The translations under genes were made by a program, and so were the position numbers. Below, piece after piece: positions 11,496-27,061 of a stretch of 64,000 bases of DNA (its first letter is position 1; each line of letters begins with the position of its first letter). The stretch lies in assembly GCA_964613985.1 (NCBI GenBank), contig CAZTJD010000002.1, positions 3,664-67,663 of the forward strand, in the 5' to 3' direction. This DNA comes from an uncultured Anaerolineales bacterium. Its GTDB lineage: Bacteria; Chloroflexota; Anaerolineae; Anaerolineales; UBA11858. The notes under the pieces are model-generated. The model was not told the origin of the DNA, did no database searches, and was given only the letters and a program-made list of their open reading frames with translations.

Positions 11496-12014
11496 ATCTA
11501 AATTGCAAATTTCACCCAAACTTGCTAGACTGCAAAAGTCCAGTTCGTTTACTAACCCAGCTGATAACTTTTAGTGGTTGAGGATGGCCTGGGAATAGTA
11601 CTTTTATTGATCCTGTTATCGTTTTTTTTGTACTTCGAGTAGTGCAGTGCAGACAATTGTTGTGGGAGGAGGACCAGGCAAAAAGTGACGCATTTATAAT
11701 GGTGGGTGAAAAGTTGCTATTGACTGAATGCCATCAGGGTTTAAAGTCACCACGCAGAAGAAATGGGGTTTATTAGTTCTATGGGATTAGAAATCCTTAA
11801 TCTTGATATTCTATGAATACAAACATCGTATAATGCTAGATCAGGCATAAACCATTAGGTGTCAATTAATTTATTTCTTACTTTAAATTATAATAAATCG
11901 GGTTACTAAAAAATTCTTGTAACTTCCGGTAAAATTAATCTTGATAAAGCTACCCAGAAAACGCTCTCATTGCGAATAACAACTTCAAAAAAACAATTGC
12001 GAAGGAGTATACGA

Positions 12015-13589
12015 ATGAATAAATTATTTAAATCCCTTTTGTTCATTCTAATTTTTACCCTGTTGAATATGACACTGGTCGCTTGCGGTGCTAAAGCACC
12101 CACAGCAAATGATCTCGCTCAACAAACAGCTGAAGCTGCAACGGCAAAACTGGCAGAAATGGAAGCCTCATTAGCTGAAGCGCAAGCCAAGGCAGAAGAA
12201 TTGGAATCGATGGCTGCTGACGAACTAGCTACTGCTCAGACAGAATTGGAAACTGCAAAGGTAGCACTTGATGCCGCTAAAGAAGCAGCCGCTGAAGCAG
12301 AAGCCAAAGCAGCCGAACTGGAGAACACCGAAAAGGATTTCCTGACCTGGTTCCAATATGATGAAACCAATGAAGACCCAGCCAGCGATGAGCGCGTCGG
12401 AAACGAATACCTCCGTAACACCATCCCACAGTTCAATAAAGCCTTCGAAGGGAAATGGAATTGGATTAACCGACCCAAGGCCTGGGATAGGATGAGTCAG
12501 GAATTACTTGCAGCTGTAATCGCTAACGGTACCGTACCGGATATTATTGAAATGGGGGGCGGTAGCTTTATGAAGTATTACCGGAATGGTGCCTTGCAGG
12601 ATCAATCAGAGTGGGCTAAAATCCAATCATGGTATCAAGATATGGATCCCGGGGCGTTGAAGTCCTGTACAGCACCAGACGGCAGCCTACTCTGTATTCC
12701 AATGGCAACTCGTCCTACCCTGGTCTATGTCTGGGGGGACAGATTCCCTAACGGATACCCTACGACCCCTGAAGAATTTGTCGTGGAAGCGGATCGGTTG
12801 AAAGCAGAGGGCCTCTACGCCTGGACTTATTTTGGTTCTACAGCTTATGGTGGGGCTGGAACGAGCCGTATGGTCTGGACACTGGTCTCCTCCTTCGGCG
12901 GCACCTTCGATGATGGAGAGGGCAATATGCAGCTCACCTCTCCTGAGACCGTGGCAGCGATTGAGTTCCTGCGCATGACTGTCCAGAAAGGGTACAACCC
13001 TGAGACCGTCTTCGCAGGTGGTTTTATCGAAGAGGATTCCTTTAAGGACGCTTCGGCAGGGTCGATCCCTACTGGTCTTTTCGGTTACCGTTACATCAAT
13101 CCCCTCACTGCACCTGATGGTACCAGGTACGAAAAGGGCAACGAGGAGGATATGCTCGATGCGATCGCTGCTGGGGATGTGGTCTTAGCGCCAATGTTCG
13201 CACCCGATGGAAAAACGCCGGGGTGTGGGAATGATATCTCAGGTTTTGGCATTCCGACGGGTGCTAAAAATGTTGAGGCTGCGCATGACTTTATTAATTG
13301 GATCATGAGCCCTCAACAAAACCCCGCTTTTGTAATAGGTCCTGGTGCAGGGTTCCCAGCCAACATAGCCATACTGGCAGACCCACAATTCCAGATTCCA
13401 TTTTATCAGGCAGCAGCCGAAGCTTTAAGTGGCAGTGTCTGTACCCCCTGGCATGGCACACTTGAGAATCGAGAAGTGGCAGCTGAAATGATCATGAATG
13501 TCGTGTATAAACTGATTAAAGAGGATCCAACCGCTGACATCATAACGGAACTGACCCGGGTTCAGGATGAGTACAACGCCAATTATTAA
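12015..13589 (+). CDS. ABC transporter extracellular solute-binding lipoprotein (sugar family) with Ala/Glu-rich coiled-coil stalk
   Basis: AAGGAG RBS and a signal peptide with lipobox LVAC. About 100 aa of AE-rich helical repeat is followed by an SBP family-1-like domain. Confidence 0.8.
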   Translation: MNKLFKSLLFILIFTLLNMTLVACGAKAPTANDLAQQTAEAATAKLAEMEASLAEAQAKAEELESMAADELATAQTELETAKVALDAAKEAAAEAEAKAAELENTEKDFLTWFQYDETNEDPASDERVGNEYLRNTIPQFNKAFEGKWNWINRPKAWDRMSQELLAAVIANGTVPDIIEMGGGSFMKYYRNGALQDQSEWAKIQSWYQDMDPGALKSCTAPDGSLLCIPMATRPTLVYVWGDRFPNGYPTTPEEFVVEADRLKAEGLYAWTYFGSTAYGGAGTSRMVWTLVSSFGGTFDDGEGNMQLTSPETVAAIEFLRMTVQKGYNPETVFAGGFIEEDSFKDASAGSIPTGLFGYRYINPLTAPDGTRYEKGNEEDMLDAIAAGDVVLAPMFAPDGKTPGCGNDISGFGIPTGAKNVEAAHDFINWIMSPQQNPAFVIGPGAGFPANIAILADPQFQIPFYQAAAEALSGSVCTPWHGTLENREVAAEMIMNVVYKLIKEDPTADIITELTRVQDEYNANY

Positions 13590-14077
13590 TTTGTGACATT
13601 CTGTAGAACTTCTGGTAAACTGCCGTTTTCTTTTTTTAATAGTCGTCTTTTGGTTTGTCAGCAATTTAGACCACTATAAAAACAACCCAACATTGATCAA
13701 GTCTCTCAAGATCGCAAGCCAAACGCCAGATTGTTTTCAAGCTACCAAAAAGGTGGGTGTGGCTACTTTGCTAGAAATCGATCAGATTTCTGCTTGAAAC
13801 TGGAAAAACCCCCGCACACATCGATTGTTCTTTCATGCTAAATTACACTCACAGTAAAAGCAAATTTCTTAACGGAGTCAACCTAGGCTGAAGAAGCCGG
13901 CAATGCTGGAAACTAAGCACGTAACCAGTTTATTTAATCACAAACCTTAAGGAAGAAGATAAGGTTACAAGAGTAAAAAACCTGTCTGTAAATTATCGTC
14001 ATCTGGTATGATTCTCCTTGAAGAATTCATCCTCAGTGAATGCCTCACTCAGATCTTTGGTTGTAAAAGGACAGCGC

Positions 14078-15022
14078 ATGAAAAAAAATTCTTCTGTTGA
14101 AGCCGTGCGTCTATGGTTTCGAAAATACCTGCCTTTTTGGTTGATCCTACCTACCGCCATTGTCTTGATTATTGTTCAGTTTTATCCAGCCTTCTATACG
14201 GCTTGGCTCAGTTTCCAGAAGCGCACCCCGCAAGGGTGGCAATACGTGGGTTTTGAGAATTTCACTCGTCTCTTAAAAACCAGCCTGTTTAACTCAAGTG
14301 TAGGCCATACGATCATCTTCCTGATGGGTTATACCGTGTTTACGGTAACCGCTGCTTTCATGATCGCTTATTTGCTCAAGCAGAATGTACGCTTATCTGG
14401 GCTTTACATCACCCTCCTCTTCATCCCCTGGATCATTTCCGACATCATCGCCGGCTTGGTTTTCCGCTTGCTAGTCGTCCCAGAATATGGTGTTTTAAAC
14501 AATGTTTTCGGCAATCCAAATTTATTCCCCCCGAACGGGATCTCGATCCTGACCGCCAATCGACCGGCGCCCTGGGTGGGAAATTTCCCCTTCCCTCCCT
14601 CCCCGGCGATGATTTACCTGATCCTGGCAGCTAGCTGGCGAGCCCTACCTTTTGTAACCCTTCTCATTTTAGCTGCTCTGCAAACCGTTCCCAAAGAAGT
14701 GGTCGAAAGCGCCAAAATTGATGGTGCAAATAGCCTTCGTCTTGCGCAGTACGTTACCATCCCCTTGATCCTGCCTGCTATGGTGGTCGCCATCTTTAAC
14801 CTGATCTTGGGCGGCATGAATGGGGTCGGAATGGTCTTTAGCCTTACAGGCGGTGGACCAGGTACCAACACCTATGTGCTTAGCTACCTGCTCTACACCC
14901 TAGGGTGGACCCGCTTTGAATTCGGTCAGGCTGCGGCTTTGGCCATTATCCTTGCCATTGTCAACTGGATCCTTATTATGGGTGTTCTGCGCATCACTCG
15001 TGTCAATGAAAGGAGCCGTTGA
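14078..15022 (+). CDS. carbohydrate ABC transporter permease (MalF/LplB-like)
   Basis: Multi-TM protein with an EAA-type loop (ESAKIDGANSLRLAQYVTIP). Confidence 0.85.
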   Translation: MKKNSSVEAVRLWFRKYLPFWLILPTAIVLIIVQFYPAFYTAWLSFQKRTPQGWQYVGFENFTRLLKTSLFNSSVGHTIIFLMGYTVFTVTAAFMIAYLLKQNVRLSGLYITLLFIPWIISDIIAGLVFRLLVVPEYGVLNNVFGNPNLFPPNGISILTANRPAPWVGNFPFPPSPAMIYLILAASWRALPFVTLLILAALQTVPKEVVESAKIDGANSLRLAQYVTIPLILPAMVVAIFNLILGGMNGVGMVFSLTGGGPGTNTYVLSYLLYTLGWTRFEFGQAAALAIILAIVNWILIMGVLRITRVNERSR

Positions 15023-15023
15023 C

Positions 15024-15962
15024 ATGTTAAACCTCACCAAATGGTCACGGACTGCCTGGATCAACCGCCTGGTTAATTTGGCTCTGATTGTAATTTGTTT
15101 TATTGCCATGATCCCAATTGCCACCACCATCATCATTTCTTTCAAAGAGCAGGCCGATATCACCCGTAAACCTCCGATCCTTTTCCCTTGTGACACGCCC
15201 ACCAGCAAATTCGAGCTCAGTGCCTGCCGTTGGGCAACAGAAGGGTACCAGCGAGTCTTCGCACTCAAGGCAGATGAAGACGCCCTCTTGGGTTTCAAAC
15301 TAACCGGCAGCATGCTCCGGATTTATATCCCTAACTCCTTCTTATACGCCTCCAGTACCGCCCTATTAGTTAGCCTACTTGCCAGCTTATCTGGTTATGC
15401 TTTCTCTCGATATCGATTCCGAGGGCATGATGCCTTGATGATCGCCATGTATGCCATTACAGGCGTCCCACTGTTGACCAATTTGTTAGCCATTTACCAG
15501 ATGGGTATCAACTTGCGAAAAGCCCTGCCCTTCTTTGATGACCGCCTATATCTGATCTTCATCTACATAGGTTTCTTCTTGCCAATCAGCGTGTGGATCA
15601 TGAAAGGCTTCTTTGATACCATCCCGGTGGAGATGGAAGAAGCTGCTCTAGTGGAAGGCTGTACCCATTTAGAGTCACTATTCCGAATCACCATCCCATT
15701 GTCTACCTCTGGGATTGTCTCGGTATTTTTAATGACCTTCGTGAGTGTATGGAACGAGTTCATCGTCGCTTACCTGTTGCTACCAGAAAACAAATTCAAA
15801 CCCGCCATGTTTGGCCTTTATGACTTTCTCAGTCAGAATATCATTAATCTACAGGTCATTGCTGCAGCTTGTATCATTATCGCCATGCCGATGGTCGTCG
15901 CTTTCCTCTTCACCCGGCACACCTTTTTCAGAGCCATGGTCGAAGGAGCGGTTAAGGGATAA
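15024..15962 (+). CDS. carbohydrate ABC transporter permease (MalG/LplC-like)
   Basis: AGGAG at 15011 precedes the ATG at 15024. EAA loop EEAALVEGCTHLESLFRITIP. The track's longer start overlaps the upstream gene. Confidence 0.85.
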   Translation: MLNLTKWSRTAWINRLVNLALIVICFIAMIPIATTIIISFKEQADITRKPPILFPCDTPTSKFELSACRWATEGYQRVFALKADEDALLGFKLTGSMLRIYIPNSFLYASSTALLVSLLASLSGYAFSRYRFRGHDALMIAMYAITGVPLLTNLLAIYQMGINLRKALPFFDDRLYLIFIYIGFFLPISVWIMKGFFDTIPVEMEEAALVEGCTHLESLFRITIPLSTSGIVSVFLMTFVSVWNEFIVAYLLLPENKFKPAMFGLYDFLSQNIINLQVIAAACIIIAMPMVVAFLFTRHTFFRAMVEGAVKG

Positions 15963-16127
15963 TGGAATATGAGCACAGGGTTTATTAATGGTCATAATCT
16001 GATTCGTAACAAAGTGATCCTGTTTTTTGATTAATAAGCCATCCTGGCACGTGCACGTGGGACTTGCGCGGACTTGTCTAGACGGGTGATAGTCATCATT
16101 GAACGAAAGACGAGGTGTCATTTACAA

Positions 16128-17150
16128 ATGGTTCAACCAAAAATCCGATTTGCCATCACTGGCCTCAACCACGGTCATATTTATGGACAGACTCAAAGTA
16201 TGCTGGATGTTTGTGCTGAGGCGGTTTGTTTTTTCGCCCTCGAGGATAATCTGGCGGCTCAGTTTTCTAAGGCTTACCCCCAGATCCTTCGCGTCCAAAC
16301 CCTGGAAGAAATATTGGAAGATGAAAGCATCCAGCTGGTACTCAACGCAGGCATCCCCGTCGAACGCGCTACTATGGGGATTCAAGTGATGCAGCACGGC
16401 AAGGATTATATGGTCGACAAGCCAGGCATGGTTACTTTAGAACAACTTGAGGAAGTTCGGCGCGTACAGACTGAGACCAGGCAGGTTTATTCGGTTTGCT
16501 ACAGCGAGCGATTCTGGAGTAGGGCAGCCACCAAAGCAGATGAACTCATTCAAGCAGGCACCATCGGGAAGGTGATCCAGACACTCAGCCTTGGACCTCA
16601 TCAGCGTAATTTACCCCAACGACCTGAGTGGTTCTTTATTAAAGAAAAATACGGTGGCATCCTTACTGATATAGGCTCCCACAACTTCGACCAGTTCCTG
16701 CACTTCTCCGGGTCAACTACCGCTGAGATCGTCTCCGCCCAGGTCGCAAATTTCCACCATCCGCAGTACCCTGAATTAGAAGACTTTGGTGATGTACTGG
16801 TGCGTGGCGATGACAGCGTGGGCTATATCCGGGTGGACTGGTTTACGCCAGACGGTTTGGGGGTCTGGGGCGATGGAAGGCTGTTCATCACCGGCACTGA
16901 GGGCTATATCGAACTTCGTAAATACATCGATATCGCTGGACGTCCCGGCAGAGAGCATCTCTTCCTGGTAAATAAACAAGGCATTCACTACCTCGATTGT
17001 AAAAATGAACCCCTTCCTTACGCTCCTGCGCTAGTGGACGATATAATCAACCGTACCGAGACCTCTATGAGCCAGGCCCATTCTTTCCTGGCAATGGAAC
17101 TAGCGATCAAGGCAGAGAACATGGCGAATCGTCTGGGAAATTTGAAATAA
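16128..17150 (+). CDS. Gfo/Idh/MocA family oxidoreductase
   Basis: N-terminal Rossmann-like IRFAITGLNHGHIY, a DKP motif (YMVDKPG) and a C-terminal alpha/beta domain. Confidence 0.75.
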   Translation: MVQPKIRFAITGLNHGHIYGQTQSMLDVCAEAVCFFALEDNLAAQFSKAYPQILRVQTLEEILEDESIQLVLNAGIPVERATMGIQVMQHGKDYMVDKPGMVTLEQLEEVRRVQTETRQVYSVCYSERFWSRAATKADELIQAGTIGKVIQTLSLGPHQRNLPQRPEWFFIKEKYGGILTDIGSHNFDQFLHFSGSTTAEIVSAQVANFHHPQYPELEDFGDVLVRGDDSVGYIRVDWFTPDGLGVWGDGRLFITGTEGYIELRKYIDIAGRPGREHLFLVNKQGIHYLDCKNEPLPYAPALVDDIINRTETSMSQAHSFLAMELAIKAENMANRLGNLK

Positions 17151-17209
17151 CACGAAGACAAGCGCTGATTTCCGCGGAAAAGAACATCCGCTTTCAATTG
17201 GAGCTAACA

Positions 17210-18376
17210 ATGACAAAAATAAAAGTTGGTGTAATTGGTGTAGGCGTAATGGGCAGCCTGCACGCCAGAGATATCAATGCCTTGGAAAACACGGAACTGG
17301 CAGCAATTTGCGATATCAACAAGGGTAAAGCGGATAAACACGCCAAGATGTATAGTGTCCCTTCGTACACCAGCCATGTTGAAATGCTGGATAAGTCAGC
17401 TCTCGACGCGGTGTTAATCGCCACCCCACATTATGACCATCCCACCATCGCAATAGATGCCTTTCAGCGCGGACTGCATGTCCTGATCGAAAAACCAATC
17501 GCTGTTCACGTCCAGGCAGCCCAGGAAATGATCAATGTATATGAAAGATCCTTAGAGGCACAGCCCAATCTGGTCTTCGCTGCCATGTTCCAACAACGCA
17601 CCTTTGGCTACTGGCAGAAGATCAAAGCCTTGATCGATGAGGGCGAACTGGGGCGTTTGGTCAGGGTGACCTGGATCATCACAGATTGGTTTCGAACCCA
17701 GCACTATTACGATAACGGTGGATGGCGCGCCACCTGGAAAGGCGAAGGGGGGGGCGTCTTACTCAACCAAAGCCCACATAACCTGGATTTGTTTCAATGG
17801 TTTGTTGGTATACCCAAGCGAGTAACTGGATTCGCTGCCATAGGTAAATATCACAAGATCGAAGTCGAAGATGAAGTCACCGCCTACATGGAATATGAAA
17901 ACGGTATGATTGGTCACCTGATCACTTCCACAGCGGAATCCCCCGGTACGAATCGGCTGGAAATTATCGGTGAGAGAGGGAAATTAGTCTTTGAAGACGG
18001 GTGCTTGATCTTCTACCGCAACCGTTATTCGATGTTCGAACAAATTGAGACCTCCAATAGTGGCTATGAACCAGTTGAGAACCTGCAAATTAAAGTACCA
18101 TACCAGCATCACGGGCAACCTGGTCATCGACTGGTCATTGAGAATTTTGCTAATGCCATCCGTAAAGGAGAAACACTTATTGCCCCGGCTATGGAAGGCA
18201 TACATTCACTCACCCTAGCCAACGCCATCATGCTGTCCTCCTTCCTGGGGCATCCCATCGAGATCCCCATGGATGACAAGGCCTATACCGCAAAATTACA
18301 ACAACTAATCCAAAATTCTCACTTCGCAAAAGTCGTAGTCGAGCGGGACATTACTGATCTGGAGAGCTCGATTTAA
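17210..18376 (+). CDS. Gfo/Idh/MocA family oxidoreductase
   Basis: IKVGVIGVGVMG Rossmann motif and VLIEKP. Confidence 0.8.
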   Translation: MTKIKVGVIGVGVMGSLHARDINALENTELAAICDINKGKADKHAKMYSVPSYTSHVEMLDKSALDAVLIATPHYDHPTIAIDAFQRGLHVLIEKPIAVHVQAAQEMINVYERSLEAQPNLVFAAMFQQRTFGYWQKIKALIDEGELGRLVRVTWIITDWFRTQHYYDNGGWRATWKGEGGGVLLNQSPHNLDLFQWFVGIPKRVTGFAAIGKYHKIEVEDEVTAYMEYENGMIGHLITSTAESPGTNRLEIIGERGKLVFEDGCLIFYRNRYSMFEQIETSNSGYEPVENLQIKVPYQHHGQPGHRLVIENFANAIRKGETLIAPAMEGIHSLTLANAIMLSSFLGHPIEIPMDDKAYTAKLQQLIQNSHFAKVVVERDITDLESSI

Positions 18377-18378
18377 AA

Positions 18379-19617
18379 ATGCTCCACATTGAACCGGATT
18401 TTATGGATCTGACGGTCGATCTTGACCCCCATACTTTCTGGAAAGAAAACCTGATTTGTACTAAATTAACCACCAAGAAGCCTCGCTGCGGTCTTCATTT
18501 CTCCCCCGATGACCACTGGCTATTCGAATTCATGGCGATCCCCTCCACTCTGCGCTACTACAATGAAAAAGCCTATCGCGATAGTTTACACCCCCAGGTT
18601 AACAAGATCACCGAAGAATACATTGGTTGCTCTTTTTTTGAGGAAGACACCTGGGAACACAACCCGAAACGGATTGAGAATCTGTTCGGCTGTAATTTTG
18701 AATACCACGATGGGCGTAAGCCCTGGCTCATACCGGTGACCACGGATCCGAAGGCGTTTTCTCGAATTTTAGACCGTGCCGAAAGCATAAACATGCAAAC
18801 CTGGGCTCTTCCAGTGCCATTCCTCAGGGAATGGGATGCTCGAAAGGATGCGGGAAAAGAGGTTCCCTTCTTGGGTACTGGTAGCCGCGGTCCGGTAACC
18901 ATCATGACCTCTGTACTGAATGCGGAAAAGATCTTCTTTTGGTATTATGACCATCCTGCGCTGATGAGACGTTTTTGAGATATCCTGGCTGAAAAAATGG
19001 TCGAGCTCAATACCATCCTACGAGTCTTCAGCGGTAATACCCAACCTGGGTGGTGGGTCACGGACGATAACTGCGCCTTGTTTAACCGAAAGCTATACCA
19101 GGAATATTGCGTGCCAGTTTTAGAGAAAGTACTTGATGCCATGGCACCTGGAGATGCTCCTCGCTATCAGCACTCCGATAGCGCCATGGGGCAACTGCTG
19201 GAAGACCAGTACGCTTTAGGAATTCGTGAAGTCAACTTTGGTCCAGAAGTCGCGGTTGCCTTGATTCGAGAGAAGATGCCAGACGCCATGATTCACGGTC
19301 ATGTACCCCCGTTTCTACTGCTTAATGGCGCTCCAGAAAAAATCAAGACCTGCATACTCGACAACTTTCGCGATGCGGGTCAAACTGGCGGCCTGGAGAT
19401 CACAACTGCTGGTTCCCTGGGCTGCCGGGACACAGGCGTCGGTCGTATGCGCTGGATGATGCAGGTTGTCCAGAAGCACTGCCGATATGAAGGAGCAACC
19501 CCCATGCCCAGAGATCAGGTAGATTCGCACCTGTTGGATCTGGACAGTCCCAATGTATTTCTATGCCACGACTGCCTGGATCGGTCTATCACAGAGGACA
19601 TGATTGCCTTCTTTTAA
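18379..19617 (+). CDS. uroporphyrinogen decarboxylase (URO-D) family protein, interrupted by an in-frame TGA at 18976-18978 (pseudogene or recoded gene)
   Basis: ORFs 18379..18978 and 18997..19617 share a frame and are separated by a single TGA. The joined sequence reads ...YYDHPALMRRF*DILAEKMVELN... with a URO-D/MtaA-like C-terminal half. Confidence 0.55.
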
Positions 19618-19646
19618 GATCATTCGAAAGGATTAATAGGATAGCT

Positions 19647-21011
19647 ATGACAGATTCTGGAATTTATATGAAGATCGCCTATATCGGTGGTGGTAGCCGC
19701 AGCTGGGCTCATATCATGATGAATGACCTGGCGCAATGTCGAGACCTGAACGGAGAAGTCCGCTTATACGATATCGATTTGGCAGCTGCCAAACTCAACG
19801 AAACCTTTGGGAATTGGATCCAGCAACTGGATGGTGTACATTCTCAATGGCAGTATCAAGCTGTGGAAACCATGGAATCTGCTTTGATTGACGCTGATTT
19901 CGTCTTCCTCTCCATCCAACCGGGTCCTTTGGAAATGATGGCGGATGAGATTGCGGTAGCCGAGAAACATGGCTTGTTCTTTCCTGTTGGGGATACAACG
20001 GGCGCTCCTGGTCTGATGAGAGGCCTGCGATCAGTCAAAATCTACACTCGTATTGCTTTAGCGATCGCTGACTATTGTCCAGATGCCTGGGTAATCAACT
20101 ATACCAACCCGATGACGATCTGCACCCGAACCCTGACCAGGGTAGCGCCTGGACTGAAGGTTTTCGGCTGCTGTCACGAGGTATTTGGCACCCAGCAATT
20201 GTTGGCAAGCCTGGCACGCCAATACCTATCCCTTTCCGAAACACCAGCTCGCGAAGATATCAGGGTCAACGTTTTTGGCATCAACCATTTTACCTGGATC
20301 AACCAGGCAAAATATCAAGGACAGGACCTGCTAGCTATCGTCAAGAAGCACATCCAAAAGCCAGGAGTGCTGCGACATTATACCCAGGAAGAAGTTGAGT
20401 CTGCTCGCAATTGGTTCCATGATGCGGATCAGATCAAGTTCGAACTTTTCAAGCGCTTTGGAATTTTAGCTGCCGCCGGAGACCGCCACCTGGCAGAATT
20501 TATACCAGGCTTTATCCACTCGCCAGAAGAACTCTTCCGTTGGGGCGTCATCCGCACCCCCGTTTCCTGGCGGATCGAACGGTGGCAGTGGATCCCGGAA
20601 ATGGTGCAGAACTATCTCTCCGGAGGATTGGAATGGAGTTTTCGCGATTCGGGTGAGGAAATGGCTCGCCAGATCCAAGCACTCCTTGGCCTTGGGGATT
20701 TTGTCACGAATGTAAATTTTGCCAACCGGGGTCAGATCGCCAACCTACCACTCGATGTTGTAGTAGAGACCAATGCCTTATTTAGCCAGGATCATGTTCA
20801 ACCACTAGCGGCTGGGAATCTACCTGATGGTGTACACGCCTTGGTCTCCCGCCACATCAGCAACCAGGAGATGATCATCGAAGCTGCCTTGGCAAATGAC
20901 AAAAACCTGGCATTCCAGGCTGTTTTAAACGACCCAACCACAGCTATTCCTATCGACCAGGCCTGGCAGATGTTCGAAGAAATGGGTTGGGAGGAAAATA
21001 TAGCCTTTTAG
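19647..21011 (+). CDS. glycoside hydrolase family 4 (NAD+/Mn2+-dependent glycosidase)
   Basis: MKIAYIGGGS Rossmann start, a NYTNPM motif and the GCCHEVFG catalytic Cys-His motif. An alternative start is at 19668. Confidence 0.85.
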   Translation: MTDSGIYMKIAYIGGGSRSWAHIMMNDLAQCRDLNGEVRLYDIDLAAAKLNETFGNWIQQLDGVHSQWQYQAVETMESALIDADFVFLSIQPGPLEMMADEIAVAEKHGLFFPVGDTTGAPGLMRGLRSVKIYTRIALAIADYCPDAWVINYTNPMTICTRTLTRVAPGLKVFGCCHEVFGTQQLLASLARQYLSLSETPAREDIRVNVFGINHFTWINQAKYQGQDLLAIVKKHIQKPGVLRHYTQEEVESARNWFHDADQIKFELFKRFGILAAAGDRHLAEFIPGFIHSPEELFRWGVIRTPVSWRIERWQWIPEMVQNYLSGGLEWSFRDSGEEMARQIQALLGLGDFVTNVNFANRGQIANLPLDVVVETNALFSQDHVQPLAAGNLPDGVHALVSRHISNQEMIIEAALANDKNLAFQAVLNDPTTAIPIDQAWQMFEEMGWEENIAF

Positions 21012-25653: not shown

Positions 25654-25747
25654 GGTTATTAGGAGGATCTTTAAGCAGAAATTGTGCAATGATAATAAAC
25701 TCTAATCCTGGTAAAATGAGCGGATATTGGCCAAATTTGGAGCAAAA

Positions 25748-27061
25748 ATGAGAAAAGGTTTATTCATCTTATCAGTATTGATCAGTCTCCTATCGAATGC
25801 CTGCAGCGGAATCCATGGGTATACGCCTAGGGTAACCACGAATACTCCATCAAGCACAGTCGTTGGAACAACAGTAACAGAACTTGCCGGACCCAGCCCA
25901 AATCAAGGGCCAGAAAGTGGAGCTGGTTCTGCGGTTCAGCCAATAAATGGTTTGATGAGTGAATGTACTCTGGTCAGCTCATCCACCAAGCAATCTTCAG
26001 GCCAGGCAAATATTTTTTTAATTTCTGAAGATGATTGGACTCTTGGACCAGATGATGCTGCAGTAACCATAATTGAGTACGGAGATTTCCAGTGACCATA
26101 CTGTGCCCAATCTGCTTCCGTGCTGAAGCAGCTCAAGAATCAGTTCCCGGATGATCTTCGAATTGTTTACCGCTATTTCCCTTTAGCCAGTATCCACGAT
26201 AAGGCTTTGTTAGCCTCTCAGGCCGCAGAAGCGGCGGGGCTACAGGACATGTTTTGGGAAATGCACGACTTTCTTTTTGAAAACCAAAAGGTTTGGTCCT
26301 CACTTACTGAGGACGAGTTCGAAACCTGGCTAGTGAACACGGCTGCCTACAGGATCCACCTGGACACTGAAAAGTTTGCAGTAGATTTAAAAAGCGAGGG
26401 AATCGTTTCGTATGTCCAGAAAACCTGGGAATATGGACAGTCCCTCGGCCTCCCGGGAACCCCTTTTTTTGTTCTTAACGGTTCCCCCTATAACGGACCT
26501 TTAGATGAATACAGCATCCAATCCATCATCCAGTTACAGGCATTGGAAGAAATCCAATACAGCGAATGCCCACCGGTCGTAATTGACCCACTTAAAAATT
26601 ATATTGCCACCATCCGGACAGAGAAAGGTGATATCGTAGTACAGTTATTCCCAGATATTGCCCCTCTGGCGGTCAATAGCTTTGTATTCCTGGCAAAAAA
26701 TGGCTGGTTTGATGGGGTAATATTCCACCGAGTACTCCCTGGATTTGTAGCCCAGGCAGGGGATCCAACTGGTACTGGCTTAGGTGGGCCAGGTTATGCC
26801 TTCAAAAATGAAACGACTCCCGATCTTGTCTTTGACCGGGAGGGCTTACTTGCCATGGCAAATGCCGGTCCGGATTCTAATGGCAGCCAGTTCTTTATCA
26901 CCTTGGGACCAGCCGAACATCTTAATGGAGCCTATACCATATTCGGTGAAGTCATTGAAGGAATGAAAGTTGTTAAAAATCTGACAGCACGAGATCCATC
27001 CCAGGGTTCTAATCTGCCACCCGGGGACATGATCATCACAATCACGATCGAAGAGAAATAA
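25748..27061 (+). CDS. predicted selenoprotein: DsbA-like thiol:disulfide oxidoreductase (UxxC) fused to cyclophilin-type peptidyl-prolyl isomerase, lipoprotein
   Basis: GGAG RBS and lipobox LLSNAC. An in-frame TGA at 26093-26095 gives IIEYGDFQ-U-PYCAQ, with a downstream hairpin. The DsbA-like body follows (FWEMHDFLFENQ, GTPFFVLNG), then cyclophilin motifs (FHRVLPGFVAQAGDP, NGSQFFIT). Confidence 0.8.
26112..26131 (+). promoter_or_regulatory. candidate bacterial SECIS hairpin
   Basis: CUGCUUC-CGUGCU-GAAGCAG is a perfect 7-bp stem. It starts 16 nt after the UGA, and the loop contains GU. Confidence 0.6.

Follow-up and report, generated by a model that had tools for sequence, protein, structure and literature searches.

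A probable Arg-to-stop mutation, rather than selenocysteine recoding, at an in-frame TGA in a URO-D-like gene of an Anaerolineales sugar cluster

A gene of the uroporphyrinogen-decarboxylase (URO-D) superfamily in an uncultured Anaerolineales bacterium is interrupted by one in-frame TGA, and a hairpin can be drawn a few nucleotides downstream of it, raising the question of whether the codon is a nonsense mutation or is recoded as selenocysteine (Sec). The window referred to throughout is the whole stretch of DNA that was analysed, 64,000 nucleotides of contig CAZTJD010000002.1 (assembly GCA_964613985.1). The ORF list places ORFs 18379..18978 (199 aa) and 18997..19617 (206 aa) in a single reading frame, and translation of 18379..19617 yields 413 codons with the TGA at 18976-18978 as the sole internal stop, confirming the original prediction of two ORFs in the same frame that are split by one TGA. 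The features of the frame and its surroundings are the following.

11970..21011, + strand: co-directional sugar cluster (Pfam).
18379..19617, + strand: gene frame of the URO-D superfamily, very probably a pseudogene now, with 412 sense codons and one internal TGA (Pfam, homologs, AlphaFold, Foldseek).
18976..18978, + strand: premature TGA at codon 200, in a mostly-Arg column within F-R-D (protein and genome-locus alignments, further assemblies).
18997..19617, + strand: orphaned C-terminal half, a 206-codon ORF from ATG 18997 (ORF list, predicted secondary structure).
19492..19617, + strand: C-terminal extension of 41 residues, predicted to be disordered (alignment, stops of relatives, pLDDT < 50 for residues 372-412).

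Family and genomic context of the interrupted gene

Joined across the TGA, the 412-aa product scores 60 bits against the Pfam URO-D profile PF01208 (cutoff, as gathering score, 23.9; E 2.7e-16), and a protein search with it returned 826 homologs, the best of them at 74% identity. The best 120 of the 826 are full-length proteins of ~370 aa at 65-74% identity, which align end to end and originate mainly from Chloroflexota/Anaerolineae MAGs. The AlphaFold model of the joined product is a (beta/alpha)-barrel (pTM 0.77, core pLDDT 80-97) that Foldseek matched with probability 1.00 to 4ay8, 6w2o and 1r3y (TM about 0.5-0.65, 13-15% identity), the closest solved folds being the M. mazei MtaA-like methyltransferase 4ay8 and HemE-type decarboxylases. 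Combined, the profile score and the modelled barrel place the product in the URO-D superfamily (PF01208), in agreement with the continuous URO-D/MtaA-like fold that had been read from the two ORFs.

The likeness to the characterised members of this superfamily (HemE; the MtaA/CmuA/MtbA corrinoid methyltransferases) lies in the PF01208 score and in the superposition of the predicted (beta/alpha)-barrel. The window gene differs from HemE and MtaA-CmuA in its low identity to them and in subfamily scores far under the cutoffs: the NCBIfam MtaA/CmuA model gave 28.9 bits against a cutoff of 235.4 and PRK06252 gave 29.9 against 244, no NCBIfam HemE model matched the joined product, and the family profile (A1) found none of the PDB sequences at E <= 0.01. 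Lacking both a solved sequence relative and an NCBIfam name, the URO-D-like family is therefore regarded as one of uncharacterised sugar-cluster enzymes. The context differs as well, being sugar catabolism (GFO/IDH/MocA, AP_endonuc_2, GH4) for the window gene versus haem synthesis or methanogenesis for HemE and MtaA.

According to Pfam, the cluster contains a solute-binding protein, two ABC permeases, two GFO/IDH/MocA oxidoreductases, the URO-D-like pseudogene and a GH4 glycosidase. Neighbours of the family in relatives are GFO_IDH_MocA, AP_endonuc_2, GH4, UxaC and more URO-D paralogs, so the sugar-cluster setting originally described holds both from the window and from the neighbourhoods of relatives. 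Exact synteny with the window is sporadic, with GFO2 present at 8 of 80 loci. The loci L082 (contig_58634, 386110-403222), L084 and L085 illustrate this arrangement, the family lying beside GFO_IDH_MocA, AP_endonuc_2 (a xylose-isomerase-like TIM barrel), GH4 and UxaC, and URO-D paralogs occur there up to three in tandem (L085) or inside 8 kb (L082). Additionally, the GH4 gene of L082 (15003-16378) was called as three fragments of 107, 137 and 117 aa, probably reflecting indel errors of a long-read MAG assembly, not biology. Within the 64-kb window no intact paralog of the URO-D-like gene was detected, and a promoter and terminator scan returned counts at chance level. Overall, sugar clusters of the Chloroflexota type are a recurrent setting for this uncharacterised URO-D-like family.

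The family usually stops just past C-R-Y-D/E, the natural stops of relatives falling at about residues 367-380, and the window frame runs 41 codons further. This frame ends about 30 nt upstream of the GH4 start, and variable C-terminal tails are also seen in a few relatives.

Residue at the TGA and further lesions in the frame

In a protein alignment of 22 sequences, the TGA column is occupied by Arg in 21 of 21 homologs (F-R-D). The site was also mapped codon by codon at 80 loci from a species-representative genome collection, with the following residues at the TGA column.

Arg, 66 of 80 loci: CGC 42, CGG 14, CGT 6, AGA 2, AGG 1, CGA 1.
Ser, 9 of 80 loci: AGC 8, AGT 1.
Thr, 2 of 80 loci: ACT 1, ACG 1.
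Cys, 2 of 80 loci: TGC 2.
Ala, 1 of 80 loci: GCG 1.

TGA was found at the aligned column in 0 of the 80 genome loci, and none of the 80 relatives has an internal stop anywhere in the gene; the stops that tblastn crossed in relatives are natural ones, located directly past C-R-Y-D. The AlphaFold model places residue 200 in the short linker that connects helices 193-198 and 202-218, a position that is tolerant and non-catalytic as modelled. The predominance of Arg, the rarity of Cys and the linker location agree with the original prediction that the interrupted position is not an obvious redox Cys. The same prediction had proposed an ortholog alignment as a check for Leu, Trp or Cys at the TGA and had offered TTA or TGG as the ancestral codon; the alignment returned predominantly Arg, so the nonsense mutation at a sense position stands and the Leu or Trp ancestry does not. 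Among Arg codons, CGA accounts for 21% in the window and for 6 of 24 in the URO-D-like gene. Since CGA is a common Arg codon here, a single C-to-T transition (CGA to TGA) is the simplest origin, with AGA to TGA likewise requiring one step.

Two observations concern truncated homologs. P0123 (207 aa, Logan), which falls in the same 90% cluster as P0168 (371 aa), has F-W-D at the TGA-aligned column, followed by RSKPLE and a stop; this divergence, in an unrelated lineage and close to the same spot, looks like a frameshift or contig artefact from its sequence. Homologs of ~190-208 aa on long contigs were considered as possible sharers of the stop and were rejected, having scattered ends, frameshifted tails or contig ends.

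A pattern scan of metagenome contigs, in which the TGA codon was left free, returned one contig, JGI Ga0315534_1041194 (1,998 bp; 3300031585; L081/L086), which corresponds to window positions 17481-19478 at 99.8% identity and carries the TGA. The same gene fragment is present in the Logan assembly of run SRR9700687 (SRR9700687_949092, L087), and a base-by-base comparison found the TGA at 18976-18978 in all three sequences. The JGI and Logan contigs share three departures from the window, namely G18356A (GFO2 D387N), G18535T (URO-D A53S) and G19454A (URO-D W359 to TAG), and all of these reproducible differences of the sister population are non-synonymous. A fourth, G17828T (GFO2 G211, GGA to TGA), is confined to the JGI contig and absent from Logan; at all four L081 differences the window has G and the contig has T or A. 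Operon-wide decay starting from a GFO2 nonsense mutation at 17828 was considered and dropped, the Logan assembly being without it. The 199-aa fragment belongs to a protein cluster of only two members, and no relatives between 74% and ~99% identity are on record. Both contigs begin exactly at window position 17481, which may be a strain-variable junction or a coverage break.

Two further lesions bear on the state of the frame.

19419..19434, + strand: compensated frameshift (codon-level comparison with L001, L002, L013 and others).
19453..19455, + strand: codon W359 (TGG), which is TAG in the sister population (JGI and Logan assemblies, family alignment).

W359 is near-invariant, being kept in at least 90% of family sequences. 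At the compensated frameshift, the near-invariant T-A-G-S-L-A-A-G-T-G-V-G reads T-A-G-S-L-G-C-R-D-T-G-V-G in the window (L-A-A-G-T-G to L-G-C-R-D-T-G). The window has CTG-G-GCTGCCGGG-AC-ACA-GGC versus CTG GCT GCC GGG ACA GGC in relatives, corresponding to an insertion of one G in a G-run (+1) and, nine bases on, of two bases in an AC/CA repeat (+2) that restores the frame. This indel pair is common to the window and L081, and residues 346-349 form the sole core stretch with pLDDT < 50 in the AlphaFold model. Additionally, where a column is conserved in 95% or more of the sequences, the window copy departs from it privately 12 times, compared with a mean of 2.0 (sd 2.1) in relatives. Among five other sequences at a nearest-neighbour identity of 0.70-0.75, four have 3-5 private deviations and the intact L031 also has 12, so the excess is suggestive and not proof, being partly a long-branch effect. 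Downstream versus upstream enrichment of private changes was not significant (9/77 vs 3/75, P = 0.13). Combined, the indel pair, the private deviations (in part branch length) and the change of W359 to TAG in the sister population point to relaxed constraint, and the open 412-codon frame with its frame-restoring indel pair fits either recent inactivation or residual selection before inactivation. The earlier description of a young pseudogene therefore holds for the pseudogene and less well for its youth: with an indel pair, 12 private changes and a sister-population stop at W359, the copy does not look pristine or very young.

The TGA falls at codon 200 of ~370, and in 80 of 80 relatives the gene is uninterrupted, at this site and over its whole length. 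It very probably represents an Arg-to-stop nonsense mutation in an ordinary decaying pseudogene of a URO-D-like gene, not Sec recoding; a pseudogene arising by nonsense mutation is an already known kind of event. A single-base substitution at codon 200, most simply the C-to-T change described above, would have replaced Arg by TGA, and ribosomes would terminate there and free a 199-aa N-terminal fragment. In the model, the part beyond the stop contains five barrel strands together with the motifs WWxTDDN, QHSDS and TTAGS; since the fragment would be without these strands and the most conserved motifs of the family, the enzyme is presumably inactive. Unlike genuine starts in the window, ATG 18997 is not preceded by a GGAG-type Shine-Dalgarno sequence, suggesting that the second half is probably not translated usefully. 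Drift at the locus is suggested by the indel pair, the private substitutions and the second stop of the sister population. Downstream, GH4 starts from its own ATG (19647 or 19668) and may stay expressed and functional.

Nonsense pseudogenes in bacterial catabolic operons show the same single premature stop, with full-length homologs having a sense codon there, and the same secondary lesions (indels, private substitutions, a second stop in a sister strain) with no recoding signal. The window copy does not differ substantively from these typical cases; it is lightly damaged, with one stop in an otherwise open frame. In annotation, the interval 18379..19617 is best marked as a pseudogene belonging to an uncharacterised URO-D-like family.

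An unlikely alternative is that the gene remains functional, either as a split gene, in which translation would terminate and reinitiate at ATG 18997 and the two halves would form the barrel, or through a leaky stop with near-cognate readthrough of the UGA. An in-frame ATG does lie 19 nt past the stop, but it is the one without a Shine-Dalgarno sequence, and a protein restarted there would lack the six residues DILAEK, with the barrel broken between helices. Of the stop codons, UGA is in general the most prone to readthrough, and the remaining window frame is open, whereas in the sister population the C-terminal half is cut short at the invariant W359. Likewise, the frame-restoring indel pair suggests past selection on the frame, yet it leaves a near-invariant motif rewritten. 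Among the relatives, 0 of 80 are split at this point, and truncated homologs end at scattered positions.

A sequencing or assembly error, in which the true base would be C (CGA) and the gene intact, is very unlikely. One base would suffice, the window probably derives from a metagenome-assembled genome, and the change at 17828 in L081 is not reproduced by Logan, which shows that this material does contain errors at the level of assembly. However, the same TGA is present in two further assemblies, and is therefore no private error of the window assembly; given the three reproducible differences, the JGI and Logan contigs do not represent the same consensus as the window. The other lesion shared within the gene, the indel pair, also argues against an error, and the TGA is thus real at the level of the assemblies.

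Downstream hairpin and UGA recoding, with a DsbA-like site as internal control

Before Sec recoding is weighed against the Arg-to-stop reading, two features require description.

25727..27061, + strand: candidate selenoprotein, with TGA at 26093-26095 and a hairpin at 26112-26131.
18988..19032, + strand: hairpin after the TGA of the URO-D-like gene, incidental and not a SECIS (folding, background, covariation).

The first of these serves as an internal positive control. TGA 26093-26095 joins ORF 25727..26095 to ORF 26120..27061 in one frame, whose product combines a lipoprotein-like N-terminus, a DsbA/Thioredoxin_4 domain and a cyclophilin PPIase, and whose junction reads EYGDFQ-TGA-PYC. In an alignment to solved DsbA-like proteins (3gyk DYNCPYC, BdbD DYKCPSC, 4pwp DFECPFC), this TGA corresponds to the first Cys of the C-P-x-C redox motif. 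Sixteen nt separate it from a perfect 7-bp stem (CUGCUUC/GAAGCAG, starting at 26112) with the 6-nt loop CGUGCU, a stem matched at that distance by only 1.2% of in-gene positions. DsbA-like UxxC is a listed bacterial selenoprotein family (PMC1088965; table in PMC9312934). The UPYC site at 26093 is, as judged from sequence, a credible Sec site in a candidate selenoprotein, and it lends plausibility to the original prediction that this genome decodes UGA as Sec elsewhere; because the genome probably decodes Sec, the machinery for UGA recoding may be present. The site illustrates a positive case, its TGA falling in the column of a catalytic Cys and its hairpin being compact and rare, whereas the URO-D-like site has none of these selenoprotein attributes.

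In the hairpin of the URO-D-like gene, the outer stem pairs GCUGAA (18988-18993) with UUCAGC (19027-19032), and the inner stem pairs AUGGU (18997-19001) with ACCAU (19012-19016) around the 10-nt loop CGAGCUCAAU. RNAfold, applied to the 57 nt past the TGA, returned exactly this structure at -7.6 kcal/mol, so the stems and loop noted originally are present. The shuffle z-score of the hairpin is +0.90, with 162 of 200 shuffles folding at least as well. Shuffle z-scores are non-discriminating, as the credible Sec site at 26093 itself has z = -0.23, and they were replaced by an empirical background taken from in-gene positions and by a geometric measure of the stem. At least as good a fold was found at 77% of 4,772 in-gene window positions, and a 5-bp apical Watson-Crick stem with a 10-nt loop at SECIS distance was equalled at 20% of 14,115 in-gene positions. 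Over the 80 relatives, none of which has the TGA, pairs form in 65.8% of cells versus 65.7% in column shuffles, and the covariation score is 0.097 versus 0.099. The proposed check for relatives with a TGA plus a conserved hairpin therefore gave no TGA and no covariation; the pairing potential tracks the conserved codons GCN-GAR (Ala-Glu) and TTC-AGC (Phe-Ser). An Rfam search of the 64-kb window returned four tRNAs only; neither a SECIS nor a tRNA-Sec was among the hits, and sel genes were likewise not found in the window.

A published screen for bacterial selenoproteins (PMC1088965) asks for at least 2 Cys homologs, TGA/Cys pairs in > 50% of homologs, and a SECIS-like stem-loop with a small G-containing apical loop. 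At the URO-D-like site, Cys occurs in 2 of 80 relatives (2.5%) versus the > 50% required, the hairpin is neither beyond chance nor conserved, and the TGA occurs at 0 of 80 loci, being shared only by the 99.8%-identical sister population.

It is highly improbable that, in a Sec-decoding genome, the UGA at this Arg position is partly read through or followed by reinitiation without a canonical SECIS, giving a functional two-piece or low-level full-length enzyme. Were this the case, the locus would be a snapshot of a gene tolerating, or starting to exploit, an internal UGA.

Sec recoding proper, with the UGA read as Sec, the hairpin at 18988-19032 acting as a bacterial SECIS and a full-length selenoprotein as the product, is extremely improbable. 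The gene does resemble bacterial selenoprotein genes such as DsbA-like UxxC in its in-frame UGA, in a probable Sec-decoding genome (the UPYC site implies that the machinery may exist) and in a hairpin loop that begins 23 nt past the UGA, contains G and lies within loose bacterial SECIS geometry; Cys also occupies the column in two relatives. However, the UGA differs from theirs in aligning with Arg (66 of 80, with Ser 9, Thr 2, Cys 2, Ala 1 and no TGA) instead of a conserved redox Cys, and Sec/Cys orthologs are not dominant. The modelled helix-helix linker is no redox or active-site residue, the hairpin is at chance level against the in-gene background, without covariation or an Rfam SECIS, and the sister population has TAG at the invariant W359, which would not be tolerable if the full-length protein mattered. 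The recoding option that had been left open thus fails on the Cys and TGA counts and on a hairpin at or below chance, in favour of the Arg-to-stop mutation. The locus is thus useful as a clear negative example: even where the genome probably decodes Sec, an in-frame TGA with some complementarity is insufficient to call recoding. Finally, an alternative code in which TGA is a sense codon is rejected, because TGA closes 9 of 41 long ORFs in the window.
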